Source: Carcharhinus amblyrhynchos | Lineage: Eukaryota | DNA length: 64,000 bases | Direction: 5' to 3' | Assembly: GCA_965287045.1 (NCBI GenBank) | Contig: OZ336873.1 | Location: 113,398,001 to 113,462,000 of the forward strand | Shown: positions 5,328 through 50,654 of the stretch, piece by piece | Numbering within the stretch: the stretch's first letter is position 1 | Layout: each line of letters begins with the position of its first letter | Position numbers and translations under genes: made by a program | Notes under the pieces: model-generated | What the model was told of the DNA's origin: nothing | Database searches by the model: none | What the model saw: only the letters and a program-made list of their open reading frames with translations

Positions 5328-5629
5328 GGGTGTGAGGGCGATCTGGCTGCGACATCTGTTACTCTATCGATCGCTAGGGTTGATTCGGCTGATCTGGCTA
5401 GCTAGGCGGGTGTCCCCCTTCCCTCACAGCTCCATGTGCGTCCCTCCCGAAACTCAGCGCTCAGTCACAGAGGATGACCCCCTAGAAAAGGACTGCTCCA
5501 TCAGTCTAGGGTATATGACGTAGCTACACTCCCCTACTAGGCTAAACCTCCAACACCATTTGTAGGATGATGTAGGGAGTCAAGCTCCAAGACTTCAGAC
5601 ACTTGGGCCACTGTAATTGCAGCAGTTTT
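5328..5629 (+). ncRNA. RN7SK: 7SK snRNA copy, probably a pseudogene/retrocopy, in il13ra2 intron 1
   Basis: GGGTGTGAGGGCGATCTGGCTGCGACATCTG...GGGTTGATTCGGCTGATCTGGCT...CCATGTGCGTCCCTCCCGAA...CCATTTGTAGGA...GTCAAGCTCCAAGACTTCAGACAC follows vertebrate 7SK colinearly. It shows CpG decay, a degenerate 3' hairpin and no upstream TATA. Confidence 0.9.
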
Positions 5630-7124
5630 CCCAAAAGAGGCAAAACATCTTAATATTCTGGTGGCAAAATCTGACTAGAATTTGAAATTGATAGTGAATT
5701 GTAATCCTTGCCAGAAGTATTTTGACCAGACCGTGATGCTTGCACTGGGAGAATAAGCTGTGAGTTGTGAGATTTGAATGCATTCTGGTCTTGCCCAGAT
5801 TTGATGGAGCAATAGCAGCTGCAGTCATAGCCAGAGAGACATGTGCAGTTTCATGTTAGGGCACAGATTCCTTTCCATCATTGTCAAACTCGAACACCAT
5901 TAGCTTGCCTCCAGCTGTATCCGTCCCTGCAACAGCACAGCTCAGGACATCCTGTAGTGCAAGTGTTACATTACTCTGATACAAAACTCTGATACTGAGG
6001 CTTACTCCTTTGGAGGGAGGGTAATAAATGGTTGAATTCATGACAGCACAATTCCCCAAGATAATCTGAAAGGTATGCCACAGACAAAATCAAATTATTC
6101 AAAACTGAATGGTTTCCTTGACCACAAAGTTGTGGATGCAGAAGATCAAGCCAAGGATAGGCTATACAGAATAAACCACTTTGGTTTGTCTGAATCTAAC
6201 CAGAGGGATCTGGAAGTTATGACATTAGACGATCAATGTGAAAGTTAATTTTAGAATATGCAGCTTTGAGCTCATGTGATATAGATAGAAAACAATGATT
6301 GATGATTTTGTCAGTAGAGACAAAAGAAAAGAGATAAATGGAAAGAATGCAATTTTATGGATACAGCATTCTCTTGGAATGCACTATGGAGTTGGTCATC
6401 ATCTCTACTCCCCTGGAGACACTCTGGAAAGACCTACTGGAAAAGCTGCAAAGAACTTGTTACAGAACAGGCATTGATATGAGGCCTTTGTAGCAGGGGA
6501 ATGATGTTTGCGAGCCATAGGGTGTGGAATGACTGTTGGCACAACATCCGTGGCAGTCATGCTAAAGATACAGCACTTTACCAGACCGTCACCTCACAAA
6601 TGAGGTGGTCCATGATAACAGATCAGATAGATTGCATTCTATAAAATTGCATTTTCAACAATAAGGCTTAGAAATAATGAGCAGAGAAATGTTGCAACAT
6701 TTGTCTTAAAGATTTAACTTTTGAATATTGCTTTGTGTGGGTGCGGCAATTTGAATATTATAGTTGCTTATCCCAAGTCTAAACACTAACAAAGTCCAAA
6801 CTAACTTTGCCTAAAATGGTCATTAAAAAATTGAAAATATCAAAGCAAAGTAACTTTGAATTGTGCAATAAATATTTTAATAATATTCAACACAAGCAAA
6901 AGCACATACATGTAATGCCCATTTCATGTAACAGAATTGCATAAACAATCCAAAATTTTATTTTAAATGTTCTACTCTTTAGGCATACACTGATGTTGCT
7001 TTTTAAAATTAGAAATGAATTATTAAGTTTATAATACTGGATAGCAAATTGGCAGTATCATGTTTGGATTTATGCATGTTTTTCTTATTTGAGGTAACAG
7101 AGCTGTTCTTGCAGACACTGAACC

Positions 7125-7200: not shown

Positions 7201-10200
7201 GTATGACCTCAAGAAGCAGATGGTGTACACTTGCTAAAATGTGTTCTTCAGTTATGTAACTTCTCAAAATCTTTTGATTCAGAGTTCCTCTTTTCAAAGC
7301 CTCTATTTTGTTCCAGTTGATCCACCAGCTGACCTACAGGTCACAGACCTGGGCCACCTGGGTCCACTTCAGATCCGTTGGAAAGCTCCACTAAGTTTAA
7401 CCAGCAAGAAGTTGTGTGCAGTCCGCTACATGTTGTCCTATTGCAATGTGGATTCAACAAATTGTAAGGTAAATGAACTCATTGAATATGAGTTTTACCA
7501 AAACATAGAGGAGGATTTTCCACACCACCACCACCACCAACCCCCCCACAGTGTGGTCACCGGCAGGACTGGAGAAGATGTCTGTGGTGTTTTGCATGGC
7601 TCACCTGTCCTGATGCTTGGGAATCCCTCTTGAGGGAATCGTCTTTGGCAGGACTGGAAGATCCTGTGGTGGGCAGGGCTGGAAAATCCCTCTCTAAAAT
7701 GCTGTTACCATTTCCATTACAAGAAAGTAAATTTTGATCAGTGTACAAAACCAAAAGGGATTGAAATCAGAATTAGCTTTGGAAGTTAACTAGCCAGAAG
7801 GCCACCCCCATCATAATAGCATAAGAGTGGCATTTTTCTCACATCTGCGCTATTCTATTGCCGTATGGAGTATAATAGACTCCATTGGAAAGTATGGTAC
7901 ATCTCTCTGGAGGACACGAGTGCCATTCCTTGGTTGATCCACCAGGAACCAACCTTGAGAAATGTCAATGAGGTAAATGTAATTACTTCAGTCTTTATTT
8001 TTATCACAAGACCAGTTGAAATTATTGAAACCTGCACTTGGGAAAGCTTTGCACAGAAGTCAATCAATTCTATTGATTAATTTCAACGTGATACTTTGGA
8101 TAGAAACCTGAGCAGTTTCCATTGTTATCTTATTTGTAACATTCTTAAATTAATGAAGTTTCCCTTATCAATATCAGGGTGCTTTATGTTCAGTATTTGT
8201 TCGGCAACATTATGTGAGATGGAAAAATCAAGCCACCTTCATTTGAAAAGGGCTTAGATTATGAACGATGTGAGAGAGCACAACTGGTATTGAAGTACTT
8301 TGTATCTTGTGCATTTTCCCCATCTTTTTAAAAATTTTCCTGCTCCTGTACTGGCTGCTTCCCTGTGGTTACAGTTTTCTCCAATCAGCTAAGGTCCAGT
8401 CCACATGCTTGTGTGATGTAAAAGATCCCATGGTACTAGTTTGAAGGGGAACAGGGGATTGACTCTGCTATCCTGACCAATCTTTATTCCTCAATCACTA
8501 AAACAGATTATCGATCATTTCCCATTCCTGTTTGTTGCATATATTGGCTGCTGCATTGGCTGCAAAGGACATACGATATTGATGAAAGAAGCTATATAAA
8601 TGCAAGTCTTTTTTTTGAGTGCTGCTGACAGTTCCTTTTTCAGGCCATTGTTGTAACAGCACATGCATCAAATGGAGGACTGGCACATGTGACTTACTTA
8701 TCTATCTTTTCTGAAAACAGCATTTTGAAACAGGGGTGCAGTGAGTGAAAGGCCAGCTCTTTTGCTTTTGGGTGAATGGTCAAGAATAATGGGATGAAAA
8801 CTGCCCTCCTCTAATGTTCTATGTGAAATGAATACAGGTACTCTCAAACCAATTCTAGTGGTCTTGAGTTCACAATTCAAAATAGCAACTGGAGTACTGT
8901 GTGCATTTTTGGGCGCCGCACCTGCGCAAAGATATTTTGGCCTTGGAGGGAGTGCAGAGGAGGTTTACTAGGCTGATACTGGAGTTGAGGGGGTTGAGCT
9001 ATGAGGAGAGGCTGAATAAACTGGGCTTGTACTCGTTAGAGTTTAGAAGAATGAGAGGAGATCTCATTGAGACGTATAAGATGATGAATGGGATGGATAG
9101 GATAGAGGTGGAAAGACTCTTCCCGCTCAAAAAAGACAATAGGACTAGGGGGCACAGCCTCAAGATAAAAGGGGGGCGGTTTAGAACGGAGTTGAGGAGG
9201 AACTTCTTCACTCAAAGGGTGGTGAATCTCTGGAATTCTCTGCCCGTTGAAGTGGTGGAGGCTGCCTCGCTAAATATTTTTAAGACGCGGGTTGATGGGT
9301 TTTTGATAGGAGAGGGGATTAAGGGTTATGGGGAGAGGGCGGGAAAGTGGAACTGAGCAGTGACAGATCAGCCATGATCTTATTGAATGGCGGGGCAGGC
9401 TCGAAGGGCTGGATGGCCTACTCCTGCTCCTATTTCTTATGTTCTTATGTTCTTAAAACTAATCCTAATGTATGGAATTTTGATAGTCACGTTGGTGCAA
9501 TGAATGGTTTGCTTAAGAGATTGAGGCTAAGGAACTAGTTAGGTTGGCTAGAGTAAATGTTGGACTCTTACAAGGCGAGAAGGGGGATTAATAATGGGAA
9601 ACGAGGAAATGGCCAAGGCTTTAAACAAGTTTGTTGTGTCTGTCTTCACAGTGGAGGATACAAATAGCACACCAATAATTGATGGTCATGGGGCTGTAGG
9701 GGGTGAGGACATTGAAATGATCAATATTACTAAAACTGCAGTGCTGGGTAGAGTAATGGGACTAAAGGTAGACAAGTCCCCTGGTCTGGATGGAATGCAT
9801 CCCAGGGTACTAAAAGAAATGGCAGAAGTAATAGCAAATGCATTAGTTGTATTTTATCAAAATTTGCTGGACTCTGTGGAAGTGCCGGCTGATTGGAAAA
9901 CAGCTAATGTAACACCACTGTTTAAAACAGGAGGTAGACCAAAGGCAGGTAACTACAGGCCAGTTAGCTTAATACCTGTAGTTGGGAACATGCTGGAATC
10001 TATCATTAATGAAGAAATAGCAGGACACTTGGAAAAGAATGGTTCAATCAAGCAGATACAGCATGGATTCGTGAATTCTTTATTAAATGTAAAACACAGT
10101 GAGACTATGAAGTGAGTAAAAAAAGTAAACTATTCAGCTGGATAAACTTGTGTCATATTTGGAAAAGTTTGGGTAATAGAAGCTGTCTATGTTATAGCTC

Positions 10201-13200
10201 ACATAGGGCTATTTTGTGTTGACTGTGGATGAGCAAATTGGAAAATAAAATTGTTGATTCCCTCTTACTTAGTGTTCCTCATCTTGGAAAAAAATGACAA
10301 TAAATCCTCCATCTGTTTTAGATCCTTCCTCTCCCTAAAGAATAATTTGATTGAAATTCTAGTTTAAACAAAGAAATGAACTTTTGGGAACAGTAAATTC
10401 AAATGTCCTATCTATTGTGTAAAGTGTTGAATGGGGATATTTTTATCTTTGATGGATTTGTTTCTTCTGATAGCGTGTAATCACCAAACAACTGGAATAC
10501 ACAGATGGATTTAACCTCAACAAGGGAATACAAGTGAAACTCCAGACACTCGTGAAAGAACAATGCACAAATGGAACTGAGCAACAAAGTGACTGGGTTG
10601 AAACAGTATACTGGCCACCCATGGATGGTAAATCACCACATGCAGAAGATATCTTGTTTCAATTTTCTCCTGTGCCTTTGTAAAGTGATAAATGGCAATG
10701 ATAGTTACCAATTATAAAATACTTCTTTTATATTTCTAGGCAAGTAACTTGAAATGCTGGAAAATCTCAGCAGGTCTGGCAACATCGCTAAGGAGAGAAA
10801 AGAGCTGATGTTTCGAGTCTAGATCATACTTTGTCAAAGAATGGACATTTGAATTTATTATTCCCATGATTTCATTTCTTTGTTTAAACTAGAATTTCAG
10901 TTAAATTATTCTTCGGGGAGAGGAGGGATCTAAAACAGATGGAGGATTTATTTTCATTCTTTTTCCAAGAAGTGAGAGGGAATTAACAGTTTTATTTTCC
11001 AATTTGCTCACCCACAGTCAGTACAAAATAGCCCTATGTGACCTATAGCATAGCCAGAGCTTTGACAAAGGGTCATCTGGACTCGAAACATCTGCTCTTT
11101 TCTCCCCTTACAGATGCTGCCAGAACTGCTGAGATTTTCCAGCATTTTCTGTTTTGGCTTCAGATTCCAACATCCGTAGTAATTTGCTTTTAACTTGAAA
11201 TACTGGATTTATATTCACATGTTTCCAATTCCCTTAATAAACAAGTAAAATAAACGCGGCCCTTTCAGTGAATAGAGAAGGCAGCTCACTAGCTCCTTCT
11301 TAAGGACAGCTAGCAATAGACAATAGATGCTGGCCTTACCCATGATACCTGCATCCCAAAAATGTTTTATTTCAAACCATGAATTCAACTGCTTTTGCAT
11401 CGCACTAAGTTCGATAACCTGTAGTACCTTGAATATACTCATTCAGGAGTCCTTTCTCACCAAACTGGCAATAGTCATGGACCAGCACAGCTGTAGCAGA
11501 AGGCCAGTTTATATCCCTCATTAACTGTAACTGGCAGAAACCAGCTCCTCTGAAGTGTAAAGCTGACTGCTAAAACTGCCCAGATGCTGTGAAAATTGGG
11601 AAGGTCACCACAAACTGCAACATAGATAATAAAATTTGAACATGCTCCATGATTAACATTAGTGTGCAATTGCTAGTTGTGCTGCTCCCAATTATAGACA
11701 GAGGTTGGAAAACTGAACATGGCAGACCAGCAGAGCTGAATCAAGGCACACACCAGGGAAGTTGATGACACGTGTATATAAATTAAAGAGGAGAAGAGGT
11801 CAATATATGTTGAAATGATGAGATGCACTGTGGTTTTTGCATCTGTGCATCGTTGTAAACTCCTGGTATTAGACTCAAGCCAATGCAGTGTCACACAGCA
11901 CTAGATAGTTTAGATAAAACAAGGAAGAGTAACAGTAAATCTGAGGTTTCTATTCAGATGTTACTGTGATGTTTGTTCTGATTGATATGAATGTAGTGCT
12001 AAATGAGTCATCGAGGCTGTACTCACTAGGATGCAACAAAATCTTAAACACGGATTGGTTCTGCCAGGCTTTAAGTTTTGTCATTTGGATGGTGCCAATC
12101 TGGGAGTAGATATCATGAGCTCCTTACACTTAAGCTTGAAATAAGAGTGGAGTGAGAAGGGAGTGGAAGTTTATTAATATGGTTGACTATGGACAAAAAT
12201 AGCTTATTTCTACGTTACTTTTATCTGCCCTATTCATCTTCCTCTTTGACTATCCAAGTCGAAAATTACCAAAGTGGCAGTCTTTGGACTTGCAACACAA
12301 GTCGTTCGTGGAAACCATTTCATAAGTCAAAGCCGTTATATGTCGGAACCGATGTTTCCTACAGGGAAAAAATGTTAAAAATGGGAGATTAGTTCTGTCG
12401 GCAGGGCAAGGCAGATTGCAACCCCAGGCCCAATTTGCCCAAAAGTGCTGAATTGACGAGAAAACTGGTGGAACTCATGACTATTTTTTCACTTAAACTT
12501 CAGACCAAATATCCGCACTCTGTGCAATGCAGAGGTCACAATTGTGAATGTTATTAAAAGTTTGGAGGATGGGGCCTATTCGCATGGAGTCTGACAGTAC
12601 CGTATGTGCAGTGGCCCCAATCTGTCAGATCACAGTTGCTGGCCAACTTGTTCAATGGCCAGCCTTGGATTCTGACAACGCTGCTCCCCAACTACCCCCA
12701 GGGCTCGATCACGGCCCCCAGGGGCATTCCCTGGCCAGCCTCAACTCTTTCCCTCCCCCCTCCAAGTTAGAGCACAATGATCTCCAGTACACTGCCTACT
12801 CCCCCCAGCAGACCACCCCTGCGGGAAGCAGACCACCCCCCAATCCCGTCCCCCACAGACTACCATCCCCCAGCCCACCCTGATCGCTGGCCTCCCTCCA
12901 ACCCTGACCAATCCTAATGCAGACTGGCAGTGGAACTCCACACCCCCACCAATCACCCACAATAGGCCCTGCCCCCTTAGAACTGCCCACAATAGGCCCC
13001 TCCCCTTTCTCCTGCCCCCTTCTCAGGCTCCATCCCCTGGTCCTACCCCCTACACTGCTCCCCAAGTTGCCCTCTGTGCATGATTACTTTTCCCCTTGGG
13101 CAGTGCAGGGGGCACCATCCCCTGCTGCCCAATCACTGGCAGCCCCAATTACTCCCCCCCCCACCTTCACTCTGGCGGTGTCTCCTGCTAGTTTTCCGCA

Positions 13201-16200
13201 AGTGGGGAGCTACTCTAAACCCCACCGGAGTGAGATACTCCTGGCGGGGTGGGGAATGCTATTGGGCTCAGAGAACTCTGTGCCAGAGCCGATTAATCAC
13301 ATTTAAAACACGTTAAAATGACTTAACTCTGTCTCAGCCAGTTCCCAGCGTGGTCACGTCTGTGCCTGCCCTCCAGCCGTGGGAGACACACACGCGTCGG
13401 GAATGCACACACAAACCCGCAAAATGGCCGACATGCGATTCTCCCATCCCAATGCATCGGGATGGGAAAATCCATCCCCCCTCCCTTACCCATGGGTTTT
13501 AGACGTTTGTCACCATGGATGCAAACCGGGTCACAGCAACTGTTCTCTGTAACTGAGCAAGCGAACGGCCTCAGACTGTAGGCACAGAAGTTCCCGTTGT
13601 AATCAATGGGAGATCAGCCAGAGGGGAGAGGCAAGAGTTTTTAACCAGTAAAGTGTGGCCTCGTTCCCCAGTTTTCAAAAGTAGGTTTTTGGTTTCTGGG
13701 GCTGTAGCTCGGTCAGGCACTGCCGGCACAGCGACTCTTCTCTTTAGTGATCCTCTGGTCTGGAATGATGGTCTGGTGAGTGAGGGGTGCAAGGGGAGGG
13801 TGGGGTTCAGTGTTTCGCAGCAGATTCACAATTGTCCCAGGCTCCTTCAAAATATATCAAAATGATAAATCATATTTATAATAGTTTAACAGATGGGTTG
13901 GTGGCATTGCAAACTCAAAGCTGACATCATGAATTCAAAGCAGGGAGTCAATTTTTATTGTAGTTATTGTAATCATGATTGGATGGTTCGATGTCACTTG
14001 AATATTGTAAAGCTGAAGACTGCGTCTTGTTAACTTCCTATTTTTATTAGCTTGCCTTGGCATACTTCCCAGTCAGCAGATTGAGAGCTCAAGTCCAAAT
14101 CCAGAAATTAGAACACATAATGCAGGCTGACATCTCCATGCAAATCTAAGGCCAAATTTACTGCTGGAGGTGCAATTTTTAGATGAGACTTTAGAAGGCC
14201 CCATTTGCATTCTACAGTGGACATAGAAGACCCCATGGCCATATTCAAAACAGAGCAGGAAAGTTCACGTGGTGCCCAAGCCAGTACTTATCCTTCAACC
14301 AACATCAGTTAACCGATTCTCTGGCCATTTATTTCACTGAGAGATTGTGCTGTGTGCAAATTGGCCACCGTGCTGTCATGATTACAGCAGCATACAGTCT
14401 TAAAAGCACTTGATTGGCTTTAAATTATTTCTACTTGCTGATTCCATTTATGTACAGAGTGAAGTCAATAAAACCAGATTGTCTTGAATGTACATCCCAT
14501 TATTACATAGTAAGACACATCCGCTGCTATCACACACTTTCATTACGGTGAATAACATATAGCTATCCAATTTGCTTCAAAGAGAAGAATGACCTTTTTT
14601 GATTAATCTCAATCCATATATTTACTTATCAGATAAAACAATTAACATTCTCTTTTTCCTTTAGGACATGCAGATTCCAAAGTTAGGGACTTGCAATGCG
14701 TTGTTTACAACCTGGAACATATGAACTGTGTATGGCAGAATGGAATGAGTGCACCATATGATATCAAGTACAGACTTTATTACTGGTATGTACCACAGTG
14801 CTGATAGCTCAATAAACCAGGTTCATGTAAAAGAAAGTTGATGCATTGTCACAGGCATCAGAAAACTAACACAGAATTGCTTGTTTTGTTAATGTACCAA
14901 AGAAAGTACAACCAATGTTGTTGGTCAACGATTAAAGGTCAGTAACAGCGACAGTACTTTCTCAAAGGAAGTTGCCCGCAAAGATCTAATGACTTTTGTG
15001 GTGTGGACATTCCCCTTTCTGATGTGGGTTTGAATATGGCACTAGGAAAATGGGATTGGCTAGTATTGAGCAACAGCGATGTCATCATGAAGGGCAAACA
15101 GCCAATCATTTTGGTGGTTTGCAATAGCCACAAACCAGGAAATAAAACACATTTATACCTTCATTTAAACTTTTACAGACAGCAAATTAAATGATTTGGA
15201 GTTGTATATGACATTAAGTCAGAAGCCAAAATATCATAAACTTTTAAAATATAAAGAATTAAAAATGTGATTAGCATCATGACTGGATGGATTTGTAATT
15301 CTACAAATATAAAATTATTTTCTTGGGGGGCCAGAGCGATTTCCCAGCAGTAACTCCAAACTTAACAGTTACACCTCATTCAACAAGAGTTTCTACAATG
15401 GGACTCCTAGTGTAAATGGTCAAGTCCTTGTTAGTTTTGTGAACTCTACTTGATTGCAGTCTTGGGATTGAAATGAGGGGCTTCAAAAGCACAACCATCA
15501 GCATCTTCTAGATTTCTGTGTTTAGCTGCACATGTACAGACTCCAGAAGCTGCTGTCAATTTCACTGGGGTAATGATGTGAACACTAACAGTTTCACTCT
15601 CATTACCACCACAAAACTGGGACCAATTATTAAACAATCAATAGGTATACATCATTAAAGAACAAGTGTGTCTGGAGCAACACTTGCTAGTTAAAGTGAT
15701 TTTCCAGTATTGATGAAATAGCAGAAAACAACGCTATTTAATAAAATATACACTAATTTGAATGTAATCATCTCATATTATAGCACCAAAACAGAATATT
15801 GTTAGTACAGTTTGCTGTGGTGCGTTCTCCAACAGAATAATCTAAGAACAGAGAAATTTACAGCACAGGAACAGGCCCTCCAAGCCTGCACCGACTGTGC
15901 TGCCCAACTGAACTAAAACCCCCTACCCTTCCAGGGACCATATCCCTCTATTCCCATCCTATTCATGTATTTGTCCAGTTGCCCCTTAAAAGTCACTACT
16001 GTATCTGCTTTCACTACCTCCCCGGTCAACGAGTTCCAGGCACTCATCACCCTCTGTGTAAAAAAAAAACTTGCCTCATACATTTAATTTCATTTCAGTT
16101 GCCTGCTAACTGCTCACATCATTTCAGGTTACACTTTACACACAACTATATACTTCGCTTTTTAAAAAGTGAAATAAGCATAACTTCTTTGGGGAAACCA

Positions 16201-22200: not shown

Positions 22201-25200
22201 AAGCAGCAAGGTGCAATATAGTATATCTTGTATCTCTCTCAAGATGTCTGTCTCCTTATTTACCCCCATCTTGTCATTCTTTCTTCCTTCCCATTCCTTC
22301 TCTTTAGAAATATTCACCCTCTCCCTAAGAATGGCCATTATTCTTCTTGTCCTGAAATCTCTATTGCACTTGCATTGGTACTTTCTAAAGCCCTGAAAAT
22401 GCTGCTAATTGTCACCATTGGAACAATTTTTCGAATTGGCCAATTTGTTGGTGATCTAATAAAAATCAAAGCAGAGTAACAACAGAAATTGTTGGAAATG
22501 CACAAGGCATGTATTGGCATCAATAAAGGAAAAAGCAAGAACATAAGAAATAGGAGCAGGAGTAGGCCATCCAGCCCTTCGAGCCTGCCCCGCCATTCAA
22601 TAAGATCATGGCTGATCTGTCGTGGCTCAGTTCCACATTCCCGCCCTCTCCCCATAACCCTTAATCCCCTTGCCTATCAAAAACCTATCAACCTGCGTCT
22701 TAAATATATTTAGCGAGGCAGCCTCCACCACTTCAATGGGCAGAGAATTCCAGAGATTCACCACCCTTTGAGTGAAGAAGTTCCTCCTCAACTCTGTTCT
22801 AACCCCCCCCCCCACTTTATCTTGAGGTTGTGCCCTCTAGTCCTACTGTCCTTTCTGAGCGGGAAGAGCCTCTCCACCTCTATCCTATCCATCCCATTCA
22901 TCATTTTATATGTCTCGATGAGATCTCCCCTCATTCTTCTAAACTCTAACAAGTACAAGCCTAGTTTATTTAGCCTCTCCTCATAGTTCAACCCCCTCAA
23001 CTCTGGTATCAGCCTAGTAAACCTCCCCTGCACTCCCTCCAAGGCCAAAATATCCTTGCGTAAGTGCGGCGACCAAAACTGCACACAGTACTCCAGCTGC
23101 GGCCTCACCAGTGCCCTGTACAGGTGCAGCAAGACCTCCCTACTTTTATATTCAATCCCCCTCGCTATGAAGGCCAGCATCCCATTCGCCTTCCTGACCA
23201 CCTGCTGCACCTGCAGGCTGGGTTTTTGCGACTCATGCACAAGGACCCCGAGGTCCCTCTGCACCGTCGCATGCTGCAGTTTTTCGCCATGTAAGTAATA
23301 GTCCTTCCTACCATTATTCCTACCAAAGTGGACAACTTCACACTTGCCAACATTAAATTCCATTTGCCAGTTCTTGGCCCATTCGCCCAGCCTATCTAGA
23401 TCCTTCTGCAGACTCTCCACACCCTCCGCACAATTTGCCGTTCCACCAATCTTGGTGTCATCAGCAAATTTCGACACCATACACTGGGTTCCCTCCTCCA
23501 GATCATCTATATAAATGGTAAATAGCTGAGGCCCCAGCACCGACCCTTGGGGCACTCCACTAGTCACCAACCGCCAATCCGAATAGCACCCGTTAACCCC
23601 CACTCTCTGCCTCCTATTTGACAGCCAGTCCCCTATCCACGCTAACACCCTACCCCCAACTCCATACCCCCTGACCTTCTGTAACAACCTCTTGTGTGGC
23701 ACCTTATCAAACGCCTTCTGAAAATCAAAAAACACCACATCCACTGGCTCACCTCTATCCACCGCCCTAGACACATCCTCATAGAACTCCAATAAATTTG
23801 TCAGACACGACTTCCCCTTAACGAAACCTTGCTGTGTCTGCTCTATCAAGCAATTCCCCTCAAGATGCCTTGCTATTTTCTCCTTGATCACGGACTCTAA
23901 CATTTTACCTACAACAGACGTTAAACTAACCGGCCTATAATTCCCTGCCTTTTGCCTGCCACCCTTCTTAAACAACAGCATAACATTAGCCGTTTTCCAA
24001 TCTTCCGGCACTTACCCGGAATCCAGCGACGTCTGGAAAATAACCACCAAGGCATCCACTATCACCTCCGCCATTTCTTTCAGAACCCTTGGATGCATTC
24101 CATCCGGTCCTGGGGACTTGTCCACAATCAGTCCCTCCAGTCTTTCGAGCACTGCCTCTCTAGTAACAATAATGTCATTCAGGCCCTCCACTCCTACCAT
24201 CTTTCCATCGCTAACACCCGGCAAGTTATTCACGTCCTCCTCCGTGAAGAACGAAACAAAAGTTATTCAAGGCCTCAGCCATTTCCCCATCCCCTACCAC
24301 TAAGTCCCCCCTCTCATCCTCTAAGGGTCCAATGTTCACCCTAGTCAGCCTCTTCCTTTTTATATATTTATAAAAACTCTTGCTATCCTTTTTTATATGA
24401 AGTGCTAGCCCAGCTTCATAGTTTCTCCTACCCTTCTTTATCAACTTCTTTGTCATTCTTTGTTGATATTTAAACCTCTCCCAATCCTCTTCTCGCCCAC
24501 TACTCTTAGCTACTCTAAACGTTTCAAGGTTAACGTTTCAATGGTAAATCCTTTGTTGGATCAGGAATATAGCAACATGTCATTGGAAATATTTTCAATT
24601 GTGTGCTATTTCTATGCTTGAAAGTGTATTTAAAAAAAAACTATGCTTTGTTTCCAGTCTAAAATAATTCCTGACCCTGTTACCTCGACAACTCTGAATA
24701 TGACAGCTAATGCAATGTATTGTGTCCGTGTGAGAGCAACTGTTAATATGTTCTGTGCTGATGAGAGCATTTGGAGTGATTGGAGCTCTATCCGCTGCTT
24801 AACAGGTATGTTCACCACTTAAAGAATCGAGTGTAAAGTTTATTTATTAGACCCAAGTAGGCTTACGTTCACACTGCAATGAAGTTACTGTAAAAATCCC
24901 CTCATCGCCACACACCTGTTCAGGTACGTTGAAGGAGAATTTAGCATGGCCAATGTACCTAGCCTGCACATCTTTAGACTGTGGGAGGAAACTGAAGCAT
25001 CCAGAGGAAACACGCGCAGACATAGGGAGAATGTGCAAACTCCACACAGACAGTGACCCAAACTGGGAATTGAACCCGGGTCCCTGGCGCTGTGAGGCAA
25101 CAGTGCTAAGCACTGTGCCACCGTGCGCCTTATCTAATGGGTGTATGTGAGAATTCGGTAACAAGTCATAAAACGAATGCAAATCTTTACAATTAGTTTC

Positions 25201-31535: not shown

Positions 31536-33702
31536 TGTCATAGACATCGGCAAGATGTCAATCATGAGCTGCCTCCGTTGCCTCTGAACATGCTGTGTGG
31601 TGGTAGGAAAATCCCACCCATTGTCATTGGTCAGGTTTCAGTCCTGTTCTCTTCCCTCTAGCCCTTAGACAGAACTAACTTTGCAGCAACTGAGGGATTG
31701 TTATCCAAGGACTTGCTTCATGCATCCATTAACTTGTGTGTAAGTTCCATGTGACTTTAAGAAACTGAAATGGCCGAGACCTTGAAGCACAGAAACAGAC
31801 CATTTAATTGACCCACCCATTTTTATTCAATGTTTCTGCTCCACATGAGTCTCACCCACCAGGCTGGGGTTGTTTCCTTTTGAGTGGAGAGGCTGAGAGG
31901 GGACCTCGTAGAGGTGTGCAAAATTATGAGGGACTGAAAAGGGTAGAAAGGAAGAAACATTTCTCCTTAGTAGAGGGGTTAATAAGCATGGGGTGTAGAC
32001 TTAAAGGGATTTGAGGAAAACCCTTCTAACCTGAGGATGTTAGGAGTCCGGAACCTACTGCCTGAAAGGGTGATAGAGGCAGGAACCCTCACAGCATTTA
32101 ATAAACAATTAGATGAGCAGTTGAGACATCATAGTATACAAAGCTATGGAAAATGGAATTGGAATAGATATTCAGCACAGATGTAATGGGCTGAAGGGCC
32201 TCTTGCTGGCTGCTTACACTTGAAATCGTACAATCCCTACAGTGCAGAAGAGGCATTTGGCCCAATGAGCCTGCAGCAATCCTCTGAAAGAGCACCCAAG
32301 GTAGGCCCAAACCCCGCCTTAACCACACAGAGTATATAACACCAAGGAGTAACATAGATAACATAGACCCAAGGAGAACTGGGAAGAACCTGAAATAGTG
32401 AAACTGCTAAAACAGAGGATCTGGAAAATTAGTTTTTAAGCTTCACAGCAGAAGTCAGCAGGAACGGGATGAAATTGCTCCTTCCCACACTTCCTACTTG
32501 TTCTGATTAAAGCATGGTTAATTGGAAATGTTTCAAATACCCATCTCTTAGGAGATAAAATCATGACCTACAACTCAAAAGTACATTATTGGCTTTAAGA
32601 TAGCCTATGGTTGTGAAGTGCTCTATGTAAATGCAAGTTTTTAATGTAACCTGTTACTGTGCAAAATCTGATTTCCTTTTTCTAAAATTAGATACATGGA
32701 GGGATTTAAATGGAAATACAAGTTTGACGACTGGCGTATTATTAATCAATTTAATTCATCTGATCTCCGGGGAATCAAACCTGACATTTTGTCAATTATT
32801 GTTTGCAAATGGATCATTCGTGTCTTTGTCTCTCCACAAGCTCTTGCACACACTTATTTAAAATGTAGAATAAATTAGATCTCTGTGAGTCTCCTGATAT
32901 CAACTGAGAGATCTCAATTCTAAGATGCGTAATTTATTATCTAAAATATATAGGTGCAGGGAAAAAGAAACATCATGCCAACTATCTTGTGTTACTTTGC
33001 TATGAATATATGTTGGCAAAATTATATTTGAAGCCTTCGGGCATGAATGCTTTTAAATTAAATTGATTAATAATACTGTAGTGCAGTCCAGTTGTCAAAC
33101 TGTATTTCCATTTAAATCCTTCCATGTATCTGATTTTAGAAAAAGATAAATCAGATCTTTATGCAATAACAGGTTACATTAAAAACTTGCATTTACATAG
33201 AGGACTTCACATAGGCTATCTTAAAGTCAATAATGTACTTTTGAGGTGTAGGTTGTGATTTTACCTTCTCGTCCCACAGGCCGCTGGTGGTGCTAGCTGG
33301 TAAAATCATGAGAGAGCCAAGAAATTGATCTCTTGCCTCTCGCAAACTTGCCAGCACCAGATATCCACTGAAAGAGGCTGATTGTAATATTTAAATACTA
33401 CGTTAAATAGCATTAAATTTTACAACTGAGCCAGGGACGCTATTGTCCAGGATCGCTTGTCTCTGTGGCCTCGCTCGTGAAGGTTCTCTTGGCGAGGATC
33501 ATGTCTGGTCCCAGGCTTGATGGCCTTGCCAGTCGGACCAGAAGCCATTGAGGCCGCCCCTGGAGATCGTACCACAAGGTGGTGCACTGCCACAGTGGCA
33601 ATTCGTTTTGGGCACTGGGCAGTGCCAAGGTGGTGGGGCATGAGGGCGCAAACAGGATTGGACCAATCAGGGGGACTGCTGCGCACTCTGCAACAATGAT
33701 CT

Positions 33703-35654: not shown

Positions 35655-37269
35655 CATAAGAACATAAGAACATAAGAAATAGGAGCAGGAGTAGGCCATC
35701 TAGCCCTTCGAGCCTGCCCCGCCATTCAATAAGATCATGGCTGATCTGTCGTGGCTCAGTTCCACTTTCCCGTCCTCTCCCCATAACCCTTAATCCCCTC
35801 GCTTATCAAAAACCCATCAACCCGCGTCTTAAAAATATTTAGCGAGGCAGCCTCCACCACTTCAACGGGCAGAGAATTCCAGAGATTCACCACCGTTTGA
35901 GTGAAGAAGTTCCTCCTCAACTCCGTTCTAAACCGCCCCCCCTTTATCTTGAGGCTGTGCCCCTTAGTCCTACTGTCCTTTCTGAGCGGGAAGAGTCTTT
36001 CCACCTCTATCTTATCCATCCCATTCATCATCTTATATGTCTCAATGAGATCTCCCCTCATTCTTCTAAACTCTAACAAGTACAAGCCTAGTTTATTCAG
36101 CCTCTCCTCATAGCTCAACCCCCTCAACTCCGGTATCAGCCTAGTAAACCTCCTCTGCACTCCCTCCAAGGCCAAAATATCCTTGCGTAAGTGCGGCGCC
36201 CAAAACTGCACACAGTACTCCAGCTGCGGCCTCACCAATGCCCTATACAGCTGCAGCAAGACCTCCCTATTTTTATATTCAATCCCCCTCGCTATGAAGG
36301 CCAGCATCCCATTTGCCTTCCTGACCACCTGCTGCACCTGCAGGCTGGGTTTATGCGATTCATGCACAAGGACCCCAAGGTCCCTCTGCACTGTCGCCTG
36401 CTGCAGTTTTTCGCCACATAAGTATTAGTCCTTCCTACCATTATTCCTACCGAAGTGGACCACCTCGCACTTGCCAACATTAAATTCCATTTGCCAGTTC
36501 TTGGCCCATTCGCCCAGCCTATCTAGATCCTTCTGCAGACTCTCCACACCCTCCGCGCAATTTGCCGTTCCACCAATCTTGGTGTCATCAGCAAATTTTG
36601 ACACCATACACTGGGTTCCCTCCTCCAGATCATCTATATAAATGGTAAATAGCTGAGGCCCCAGCACCGACCCCTGGGGCACTCCACTAGTCACCAACCA
36701 CCAATCCGAATAGCACCCATTGACCCCCACTCTCTGCCTCCTATTTGACAACCAATCCTCTATCCACGCTAACACCCTACCCCCAACTCCATACCCCCTG
36801 ACCTTCTGCAATAACCTCTTGTGAGGTACCTTGTCAAACGCCTTCTGAAAATCAAGAAAGACCACATCCACCGGCTCTCCTCTAACCACCGCCCTAGACA
36901 CATCCTCATAGAACTCCAATAAATTTGTCAGACACGACTTCCCCTTAACGAAACCGTGCTGCGTCTGCTCTATCAAGCAATTCCCCTCAAGATGCCTCGC
37001 TATTTCCTCCTTGATGACAGATTCTAACATTTTACCTACAACAGATGTTAAACTAACCGGCCTATAATTCCCTGCCTTTTGCCTGGCACCCTTCTTAAAC
37101 AACGGCGTAACATTAGCCGTTTTCCAATCTTCCGGCACTTCCCCGGAATCCAGCGACGTTTGGAAAATAACCACCAAGGCATCCACTATCACCTCCGCCA
37201 TTTCTTTCAGAACCCTTGGATGCATTCCATCCGGTCCTGGGGACTTGTCCATAATCAGTCCCTCCAGTA
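35655..37269 (-). mobile_element. CR1-clade LINE, 5'-truncated (young subfamily)
   Basis: 284-aa and 211-aa ORF2 pieces split by one stop, nearly identical to the 22.5-kb copy. Confidence 0.95.
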
Positions 37270-37969
37270 TGTCGAGCAAAAGTTACTGCTTGAGCTGCTG
37301 AGTATTTCTGGCTATTTTTTCTTATCTATTTGCTTTCCGACATTTTGCTTTTGTTTCAGAGGCAAGGCAATCTGGAGATGTGTAAAAGCTCCATAATGGG
37401 AAGAGTGCAGAGACCTCAAAGGGTTGCAGGGCTGGAGGAGGTTACAGAAATAGAAAGGTATGAGGCCGCAGAGGGACTTAGGAACAAAGACACACACCTC
37501 AAGTTGTGGCAAGCTGGAGCAAGAGCCAATGTAAGTCAGACAACACAGAAGTGCTGGGCAAATACAGGAAATTGAGCAATCAATATCTGTGCTTGTCTCC
37601 AGGAAAATATTTGCTGTTGAACAAGCTGAAGGACAAAGCAGATGTTGAAATATTTATCCTCTCCTGTTACACCATTCTGTGGAATAAATATGGTTCAGTG
37701 CAATCACTTGACCATAATAAATGAGACATTTTTACATTTTTAAAGTCACCCACAGAAGTTAAAACTGGAAGAAAAACTGCCATCATCCACAAAGAATCCT
37801 TTGGGAAACCACAATCATTTGCTAACATTGCAAAAAGAAGCTTCTGAAGCAGCGAGTTCAGTTTAAGAATGTCATAACCGTCTCTGCGCAAACTCAAAAA
37901 GCATGTTTTGCAGTGAGCTTTCAGACTCCACAGCCAAAGAGGCCTCGCACGATTTGTAGATTTTTCCAC

Positions 37970-47074: not shown

Positions 47075-48227
47075 GGGAGGCAGAGGCAAATAGACATGCA
47101 GCTTAGTCCCTCCCAAAGAAGAAAGAAGAATTCAGGCAATTGCTGCTGAACAGGAATCCGTACTTGGGGAGCGTCAGGCCTGATATTGCTGTTCAAACGG
47201 ATGTGAGCACAGGGGGTAGTGATGGAACACACATGACTTTCAAAAGCTACATATGGATGAATAGCATTATTGAAGAGGTTCTGTTCTGTCTCCTGCTATT
47301 TGACCACAGAAATATTTAATGTAACAAGGGTACATTGAGTACAGAAATATTTCCAGGATCACATTGTTGGATTTTGTACTGACTACTGTAAACCACAAGT
47401 CAGCGGAAGAGGATTGCTTTGTCTGCTGTTCTGACTCACTTCATGATTCATAGGCAAATATCAACAGTGAAAGAACTGAGGACAGAGGTGAAGTATTGCA
47501 GTGAATCATGTCAATTGTTATTTTTAACATTATGGCTGGGAATCTCCCAAAAAAATTCGAAGTTCCCAACATGCGGAAAACGGGAGTAATTTCTGCTGTT
47601 TCTTATAGCGTACTTACTACAGTCCCACTGATAACTGACCAGTTCAGCCACCTGGAAAAGCTTTTTATATTCTTCTTCCTAGTCCAAAAAGAGGTGTTGG
47701 TTAGGTGCATTGGCCAAGCTAAATTCTCCCTCAGTGTTACCTGAACAGGCACCAGAGTGTGGTGACTAGGGGATTTTCACAGCAACTTCATTATAATGTT
47801 AATGTAAGCCTTACTTGTGACTAATAAATAAATAAACTTTAAAGTTGGATGGGACAAAGTTCAAGTGGGTCCAAAACTCTTTTCAATGCCAACCTGACAG
47901 GGAGAGCCCAGAACCAGGTCACAATCTAAGGATACGGAGTAAACTATTTGGGACAGCGATGAGGAGAAGTTTCTTCACCCAGAGAGTGGTGAGCCCATGG
48001 AATTCTCTACCACAAAAAGCAGCTGAGGCCAAAAAACTGCATGTTTTGAAGAAAGAGTTAGATATAGCTCTTGGGGCTAAAGGGATAAAGAATATGGGGG
48101 GAATATCAGGATAAAGATACAAAAGTCTGAGGATACTACCAACCAACTCAAGAACAGCTTCTTCCCTGCTGCCATCAGAATTTTGAATGAACCTATCTCT
48201 CATTAATCTATGAACGCTATGCTTTTT

Positions 48228-49056
48228 AAGAACATAAGAACATAAGAAATAGGAGCAGGAGTAGGCCATCTGGCCCTTCGAGCCTGCCCCGCCATTCAAT
48301 AAGATCATGGCTGATCTGTCGTGGCTCAGTTCCACTTTCCCGCCCTCTCCCCATAACCCTTAATCCCCTCTCTTATCAAAAACCCATCAACCCGCTTCTT
48401 AAAAATATTTAGCGAGGCAGCCTCCACCACTTCAACGGGCAGAGAATTCCAGATATTCACCACCCTTTGAGTGAAGAAGTTCCTCCTCAACTCCGTTCTA
48501 AACCGCCCCCCCTTTATCTTGAGGCTGTGCCCCCTAGTCCTACTGTCTTTTTTGAGCGGGAAGAGTCTCTCCACCTCTATCCTATCCATCCCATTCATCA
48601 TCTTATACGTCTCAATAAGATCTCCCCTCATTCTTCTAAACTCTAACGAGTACAAGCCTAGTTTATTCAGCCTCTCCTCATAGCTCAACCCCCTCAACTC
48701 CGGTATCAGCCTAGTAAACCTCCTCTGCACTCCCTCCAAGGCCAAAATATCCTTGCGCAGGTGCGGCGCCCAAAACTGCACACAGTACTCCAGCTGCGGC
48801 CTCACCAATGCCCTATACAGCTGCAGCAAGACCTCCCTACTTTTATATTCAATCCCCCTCGCTATGAAGGCCAGCATCCCATTCGCCTTCCTGACCACCT
48901 GCTGCACCTGCAGGCTGGGTTTTTGCGACTCATGCACAAGGACCCCGAGGTCCCTCTGCACCGTCGCCTGCTGCAGTTTTTCGCCACGTAAGTAATAGTC
49001 CTTCCTACCATTCTTCCTACCAAAGTGGACCACCTCACACTTGCCAACATTAAATT
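48228..49056 (-). mobile_element. CR1 LINE 3' end (young subfamily) inserted in a Rex1/Babar tail (~48110-48227 and ~49057-49131)
   Basis: 254-aa ORF matches the other young copies, and the flanks join into the Rex1 3' end seen at 43165-43417. Confidence 0.92.
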
Positions 49057-49711: not shown

Positions 49712-50135
49712 AATCATAGAATCATAGTGACCCTACAGTACTGAAGGAGGCCACTTGGCCAATCAAGTCTGCACTGATCACAATCCCACTCAGGCCCTAT
49801 TCCCACAACCAGGCATTTTACCCTGCTAATCCCCCTGATATTAAGGGACAATTTAGCGTAGCGCGTGTACTATATTGTAGATGGTACACACGGCTGCCAC
49901 TGTGTATTGATGGTGGAGGGATTGAACGCTTGTGGAAGGGATAGCAATCAAGTGGGCTGCTTTATCTCCCTCCCAATCAACATAACCCGCACATCTTTGG
50001 ACTGTGGGAGGAAACCAGAACACCTGGAGGAAATCCATGCATACATGGAGTTAATGTGCAAACCCCACACAGATGGAGTTGAACCTGGAGCCCTGGCATT
50101 GTGAGGCAGCATGCTAATCACTGTGCCACCTTGCT
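49712..50135 (-). mobile_element. V-SINE, CR1-type tail, with an internal ~105-nt insert
   Basis: Family match and a (GAATCATA)n tail. Confidence 0.78.
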
Positions 50136-50153: not shown

Positions 50154-50225
50154 CTCTCTGACAGGGAATTGAACCCCAGTCTCCCGCATGACAGGCAGGA
50201 ATACTAACCATTATACTACCAAGGA
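50154..50225 (-). tRNA. tRNA-Asp(GTC)-derived sequence, probable pseudogene
   Basis: Minus strand reads TCCTTGGTAGTATAATGGTTAGTATTCCTGCCTGTCATGCGGGAGACTGGGGTTCAATTCCCTGTCAGAGAG (72 nt). Anticodon GTC; CpG-to-TpG changes weaken the acceptor and T stems. Confidence 0.8.
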
Positions 50226-50654
50226 TTGGAAAAGTGCTGCCTAAGGAACCTTGGTGAGTTCCTGCAGTGCATCTTGTAGATGGTACACATGGCTGCCAAT
50301 GTGCGTTGATGGTGGAGGGATTGAACGTTTGTGGAAGGGGTAGCTATCAAGCGGGCTGCTTTATCTTCCTTCCAATCACCGCTATTCCAACAGTCTCCCA
50401 CATTTTACCTAAGGTTATCCAAAGTTCTGTTGCTCCTGTTTTAACTTGCATCAAGTTCCGTATCCCCATTGCCCCTATGCTCTTTGATCTATATTGATCC
50501 TGCAAAATCCCAATGTATCATGGGAGTATTATAAAAGAAGATTTTGACACCAAACCACTTAAGGCGATGTTGGGCCAGGTGACCAAACGTTTGGTCAAAG
50601 GCTTTAAGAATGCCTTTAAGAGGGATAGAGAGGTCGAGACGGGAAGAGGTGTAA

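Follow-up and report, generated by a model that had tools for sequence, protein, structure and literature searches.

The window analysed here is a stretch of 64,000 nucleotides of Carcharhinus amblyrhynchos DNA (contig OZ336873.1, positions 113,398,001 to 113,462,000 of the forward strand), which carries the il13ra2 gene. Downstream of one exon of this gene there is an insertion in which two 3′ ends of a Penelope-like retroelement (PLE) stand head to head, and between these two ends lies an inverted copy of about 220 bp of the unique intron DNA found on the other side of the exon. The locus, a PLE insertion whose local filler is templated and which happens to enclose the exon, is mostly ordinary. 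The reading preferred here, to which we give a probability of about 0.6, is that there was a single PLE insertion and that the filler is a templated patch made as the insertion was sealed, likely with no selected role in splicing.

The inverted copy and the element that holds it

The source of the copy is unique intron DNA at 10180..10408 (+), upstream of the exon and outside the segment bounded by the target site duplication (TSD). The filler, at 10843..11057 (−), is an inverted copy of 10183-10408, minus 12 bp of the source. In BLAST, 10183-10408 and the reverse complement of 10843-11057 are 85.5% identical over 227 columns (E 4e-72); when source and copy are aligned globally they agree at 194 positions and differ by 15 transitions, 7 transversions and a single 12-bp gap, which is in the copy. 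A preliminary description of this DNA had reported an inverted copy of the local intron, ~220 bp long, and the two alignments confirm it. These two host arms differ at 22/216 columns, which corresponds to ~5% each. When the segment 10180-10410 was searched against the 2.9-Gb genome, very common words being skipped by the search tool, only two places were found, namely the source and the copy.

Repeats are abundant in the window, and it could be supposed that the 220-bp segment is a dispersed repeat inserted independently at both sites, which is the alternative that the preliminary description itself had named, or that the second copy is an assembly error. Both suppositions are rejected as extremely improbable, given that the genome holds just two matches, that the two arms differ by 10% plus the 12-bp gap, and that the copy-to-arm junction is also present in a related organism. 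Both outer insertion junctions are common to four related organisms, the copy-to-arm junction being seen directly in one of the four.

The segments flanking the filler, 10752-10839 and 11060-11147, are 89% complementary. The preliminary description had placed a local unique intron segment, inverted, at the symmetry axis of a palindromic insert, and this arrangement is supported. It had also called the insert a miniature inverted-repeat transposable element (MITE), a label which has to be withdrawn. On the sequence comparisons that follow, the host element is two head-to-head PLE 3′ ends within one TSD. The left arm (10752..10842, −) is an inverted PLE 3′ end without its tail, with 9/90 positions off the family majority, and the right arm (11058..11192, +) is a PLE 3′ end with its tail, with 7/135 positions off the majority. 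The left copy of the TSD, the 11-bp sequence TAACTTGAAAT, is at 10745..10755 (+), its last bases overlapping the end of the left arm; the right copy is at 11191..11201 (+), its first TA overlapping the element's 3′ end. In the window this 11-mer is found only at 10745 and 11191, thus enclosing both arms and the filler. Across the family, a word of at least 8 nt is common to both ends in 23/54 two-armed copies, compared with 60/2862 mismatched pairs. The tail, which is the last 40-45 nt of the element, is present here on the right arm only, the right arm reaching position 135 and the left about 90-95, and a tail on one side only is found in 45 of the 54 scorable two-armed copies.

The arm family has 4407 first-look candidates in the genome. 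The 29 other best copies have a constant 3′ end and differ from one another at the 5′ end, as in 5′ truncation; many of them are one-armed, some are tandem, some have at their 5′ end a copy in inverted orientation, and 10/29 run upstream into a longer element. The right arm opens with a motif resembling the U3-A8 minimal hammerhead, in which core, helix II and GAAA were recognised by eye from the definition in the available part of PMC4209133. Helix III of this motif is broken at this locus, and no Rfam match to a hammerhead was found in the window. The core is followed by CGTC in 28/77 copies and by CATC in 33/77, the latter including both arms here. The longest PLE copies end in a GIY-YIG-like C-terminus. 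At one locus (L206) a frame resembling reverse transcriptase (RT) (Pfam RVT_1, E 2e-4, below the curated cut-off) is followed by a GIY-YIG-like stretch, identified by eye, and then by the arm, which matches at 85% over 138 nt. At another (L207) the Pfam GIY-YIG match has E 0.019, also below the curated cut-off; the copies at both loci are decayed. The short GIY-YIG-like peptides gave no relevant Pfam match.

MITEs are short, palindromic, high in copy number and flanked by a TSD, and they have matched terminal inverted repeats and uniform length. The unit described here is likewise short, palindromic, high-copy and TSD-flanked, but its arms are unequal, the copies of the family are mostly one-armed and 5′-truncated with varied 5′ ends, and the arm connects to an RT/GIY-YIG-like frame. 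Because of this connection it does not have the derivation from a DNA transposon that the name MITE implies, and the MITE is rejected.

Local fillers in the family and the origin of the copy

Two-armed copies of the family were gathered by three pattern searches (27, 1 and 44 matches), from which 6 duplicates were dropped (five repeated places and one segmental copy), giving 57 two-armed copies. The sample covers spacers up to 400 nt, and because of this limit copies with longer fillers, longer also than the one here, lie outside the counts. A non-PLE spacer of at least 25 nt is present in 22/57 copies, and for 6 of these 22 foreign spacers a match lies in the copy's own flanks (within 1.5 kb), the matches being direct as well as inverted and situated to either side. 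The matching fillers are 34 bp, direct, at +532 (L139); 120 bp, direct, at −550 together with 45 bp, inverted, at −672 (L140); 106 bp, inverted, at +1389, with 77% identity (L146); 28 bp, inverted, at −320 (L151); 123 bp, direct, at −917 (L183); and 106 bp, direct, at −169 (L200). For four of the six, none of 56 control flanks matched, indicating unique sequence; the fillers of L151 and L200 are repeats, each matching 7/56 control flanks. A further filler (L156; 41 bp, direct, at −210, 95%) falls below the cut in the final own-flank count.

The strict motif is found in 46 copies with centres of 0-39 nt and 27 with centres of 40-300 nt, making 73, and a local copy is present in at least 4/73 of these (L139, L140, L151 and L156), this being a lower bound since the 46 short-centre copies were outside the local-origin test. 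The junctions of the family are heterogeneous, with PLE-derived and short fillers also occurring. Among the short-centre copies, the fold is exactly at AAAGCTTT in 7/46, and in 13 the centre is 8 nt long. At the 29 other best single-arm loci, no unique inverted copy was found at the 5′ end of the arm.

It is worth adding some observations on individual loci. At L027 a 206-bp unique direct duplication (92%; 1256-1461 and 1840-2045, 378 nt apart) straddles a one-armed PLE copy, and may represent templated copying on the downstream side or else an exceptionally long TSD. L135 and L136 (G000:C2, 6.3 kb apart) are nested palindromic PLE junction copies, with a unique core inverted between them. At L020 a telomere-like filler, CCCTAACCCTAA, is found immediately 5′ of the arm, where two inverted arms meet. 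The spacer of L158 (2018-2128) resembles the 3′ part of a tRNA; since ARAGORN and Rfam found no tRNA there, it is not used as evidence for an RNA template.

At the il13ra2 locus the template lies 340-570 bp upstream of the PLE junction, and from the arrangement of the parts we infer a sequence of cutting, double priming, templated extension and end joining. The endonuclease would make a staggered cut at TAACTTGAAAT, and both 3′ ends would prime reverse transcription, one at the start of the tail and the other at an internal start. Both complementary DNAs (cDNAs) would halt at the AAAGCT point, ahead of the hammerhead motif. The end of the top-strand (left) cDNA would then anneal ~340 bp upstream, where there is a weak TCT-TTG/TCTATTG similarity, and be extended by ~220 nt, the template being either exposed top-strand DNA or the nascent RNA of the gene itself. 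The AGCT(T) end so made would pair with the end of the other cDNA, after which the gap would be closed. A join through an AGCTT microhomology had been part of the preliminary description; AGCT(T) is indeed found both at the end of the source and at the start of the arm, and such a join is plausible but unproven, because AGCT(T) also belongs to the element's own sequence. The stem formed around the exon in the pre-mRNA would be a drifting by-product, causing at most some unselected skipping. As regards the double priming, a purified PLE protein cuts both strands and extends them, its two start sites delimiting the tail (available part of PMC11167929); a left arm lacking the tail and a right arm having it, each primed from one of the two sides of a single cut, agree with this. 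The ages appear consistent with a single event, judging from the divergence of the host arms (~5% each) and of the right PLE arm (5% off the family majority). No filler-free allele was seen among the four relatives.

The copy could also have arisen by later repair, in that a perfect head-to-head PLE palindrome would form a cruciform, be cut at its tip, and have the break repaired from nearby DNA. This we regard as possible though unlikely. Suitable substrates exist, as the short-centre copies folding at AAAGCTTT and those with an 8-nt centre indicate, and both arms here retain the full centre. Furthermore, own-flank fillers are found in symmetric copies only, that is in 6/14 copies whose two arms both end at the centre of the palindrome compared with 0/8 asymmetric copies, a hand count with a one-sided p of about 0.04 in which the asymmetric fillers are mostly short; and unique inverted local copies arise away from PLEs too (4 within 1.5 kb per 1-Mb sample, as described below). 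A later break is, however, expected to be resected, and the junction here has lost no arm sequence. The divergence of the filler agrees with that of the right arm, and the heterogeneous junctions of the family, including PLE-derived and short fillers, are as expected of end joining during insertion. Patching during insertion is favoured over breakage of the hairpin tip.

Several points nevertheless weigh against a patch made during a single insertion. The restriction of own-flank fillers to symmetric copies is one of them. The left arm is 10% off the family majority, twice the value for the right arm. A tip break of a finished palindrome soon after insertion would give the same ages. No empty site for the TSD was seen, the TSD being read from the sequence. 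The L146 match may be an old paralogue, at only 77%.

In this genome local inverted copies are a common type of scar, PLE junctions being one of the places where they arise. This follows from a survey of 100 evenly spaced 10-kb stretches, which contain 7 unique inverted pairs of at least 60 bp, 4 of them within 1.5 kb, none of these four being beside the arm of this PLE. In all, the unique duplications of 60-220 bp with both members within ~1.5 kb number, in this 1-Mb sample (L033-L132), about 4 inverted and 7 direct (non-tandem) ones, and most of these close duplications have no recognised element adjoining. The idea that every nearby inverted pair is linked to this PLE is rejected, the pairs at L004, L013, L026 and L028 being ordinary repeats. 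The window itself has a second unique inverted local copy, at 32550-32756 and 33056-33269 (85% over 219 columns, 299 nt apart), whose right end abuts a different dispersed repeat that starts near 33262 (162 candidates), not this PLE.

As a single locus, this is a decaying intronic insertion scar of little consequence. As a family pattern, local fillers offer a small clue to the way in which a PLE insertion is finished once both its ends have primed. Their templates, at distances of 170-1400 bp and copied in either orientation, suggest that flanking DNA was resected or invaded (or that nascent RNA was used), and the fillers provide a countable signature of the completion of PLE insertions. A much broader proposal would be that shark PLE insertions grow from both cut ends at once and that, where the two cDNAs run off at one point ahead of the hammerhead, the free end routinely seeks a template in flanking DNA or nascent host RNA over hundreds of bases, so that PLEs are a steady genome-wide source of local inverted duplications of 30-400 bp, a part of them lying around exons, where they would give rise to new skipping, as in il13ra2. 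In this general form we consider the proposal improbable.

The enclosed exon and its splicing

According to the tblastn map, the il13ra2 coding gene occupies the + strand between 7125 and about 27507. The enclosed IL13RA2-like exon, at 10474..10627 (+), is 154 nt long and is identified by its AG/GT sites, a peptide match, the tblastn map and RNA of a relative. Its peptide is 96% identical to the IL13RA2-like protein of Mustelus asterias, and the same splice sites are used in RNA contigs of a relative, in which 10474 is joined to an upstream exon of 152 nt (7317..7468, +) and 10627 to a downstream exon (14665..14790, +, the end being approximate). The preliminary description placed this exon in the loop, 65 nt from the left arm, with a length of 154 nt, all of which is borne out, and its statement that loss of the exon would shift the frame is supported. 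The exon is real, but its designation as exon 4 assumes one upstream non-coding exon, since by tblastn it is the third coding exon; the numbering is kept below for the RNA data.

The predicted minimum-energy fold has a stem of 209 bp, formed by pairing of the two host arms around the exon, as the preliminary description had envisaged. The predicted duplex of the host arms is at -309 kcal/mol, compared with -130 for the PLE arms that compete with it. The stem includes neither of the splice sites, nor the ~65 nt that precede the acceptor.

The preliminary description went on to suggest regulation. In this account the stem would have been co-opted to loop out the exon, giving a frameshifting skip that lowers receptor levels via nonsense-mediated decay (NMD). 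The strength of the predicted stem, in pairing and in energy, is in its favour. A further point is the nature of the differences between the host arms: of the 15 transitions, 12 keep a G-U pair on the sense strand and 3 give A-C (p 0.035, post hoc). Inverted Alu pairs are also linked to skipping, and this association is stronger near exons; when one Alu arm was deleted, skipping went down in 7/8 selected reporters, by about 1 to over 40% (all from the available part of PMC13019944). Finally, NMD would conceal the skipped RNA.

The RNA data point to inclusion of the exon. Four sequencing runs were guessed to be RNA, and spliced contigs were obtained from them. Three of these, from 2 studies of one relative in which both outer junctions are present, each assemble a single contig through exons 3-4-5, and the fourth, from another organism, has the exon 3-to-4 junction. 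That relative with the single contigs is also the one that has a 53-bp deletion in the left arm. The search for exon 3-to-exon 5 joints and back-splices proposed in the preliminary description was made on assembled contigs, which drop rare forms, and it returned inclusion only, with neither a skip nor a back-splice among the 15 joints listed of 33. Back-splicing of an exon of 154 nt is also argued against by the poor circularisation of ZKSCAN1 exons of 400 nt or less, in one reporter study (available part of PMC4201285).

The comparison of orthologous introns, likewise proposed earlier, showed that the insertion is common to the four relatives and that the pairing of its stem decays. Of 16 listed arm differences in the relatives, 9 break a pair, 5 are at places where the letter of the window is itself the mismatch and 2 are opposite the gap; none is part of a compensatory double change. 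Among the changes confined to the relatives there are transversions and A-C pairs. The G-U excess as a proof of selection is rejected, because its p value of 0.035 is post hoc and similar skews occur in controls, these being 9:4 in the unrelated pair at 32.5 kb, 8:2 in that of L106, and 2/27 control PLE pairs at p 0.05. Together with the position of the splice sites and of the ~65 nt before the acceptor outside the stem, this makes co-option for regulated skipping very unlikely, and the regulatory claim is not supported by these data.

The pairing is decaying, and the insertion is probably an ordinary scar without regulation. Three things count on the other side: the G-U excess just described, the fact that the 16 listed differences exclude 28 others in the stretch, and the only partial coverage of the filler copy by the DNA run from the organism that also provided RNA. 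The stem may have a small effect on skipping, a possibility suggested because skipping is promoted by inverted Alu pairs that lie close together. Were the stem to have such an effect, a retroelement would have made a splicing-active duplex from unique host sequence in one step.

Other features of the window may be noted. The 3′ part of a LINE-like element is present in four young copies that are 93-97% identical (8885-9458, 22537-24151, 35657-37278 and 48224-49056), two of which sit in il13ra2 introns. A 7SK RNA copy, probably a retrocopy, is at 5328-5638 (+), ~1.5 kb upstream of the il13ra2 start codon, with a score of 203.5 bits and a degenerate 3′ part. A tRNA-like sequence at 50154-50225 (−), with 43.7 bits, is inside a pair of 108-bp direct repeats (49872-49979 and 50271-50378).

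Comparison with known systems

The layout reported for endonuclease-bearing PLEs is an inverted 5′-truncated pseudo-long terminal repeat (pLTR), a one-sided tail and a short TSD (available parts of PMC8557442 and PMC3846280). There is a close likeness to Pen2a of Adineta, for which the available part of PMC3846280 describes a head-to-head inverted 5′-truncated copy, a palindrome at the junction, a tail of 30-40 bp at one end and a TSD of 8-11 bp, and also unrelated sequence captured between the pLTRs within the TSDs. It differs in two respects. Only about 90 and 135 bp of the element are present here, and the captured piece is traced to its own flank, whereas no local origin is given in that part of the Pen2a paper. 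A literature search, with most subscription papers beyond its coverage, found no report of locally templated fillers in PLE junctions.

The duplex of inverted Alu pairs (available part of PMC13019944) resembles the present one in being long, intronic and close to both sides of an exon. The duplex here is made of unique host DNA from one insertion, and no skipping is seen in the contigs.

Templated insertions of L1 are shorter than 250 bp and number 22 instances, in a data set whose legend names 3,598 insertions, no targeted search having been made for them (available part of 10.1101/2024.08.27.596794). In L1 templated insertion and twin priming, as described in that part of the source, a non-element template of less than 250 bp is copied, both nicked ends prime, and the cDNA ends are joined by microcomplementarity, all of which resembles the course proposed here for the PLE. 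The L1 templates are typically within 15 bp of the site, whereas the PLE templates here are ~170-1400 bp away. In the PLE, moreover, both cDNAs copy one 3′ segment, which gives a palindrome, and a local copy is found in at least 4/73 strict-motif copies.

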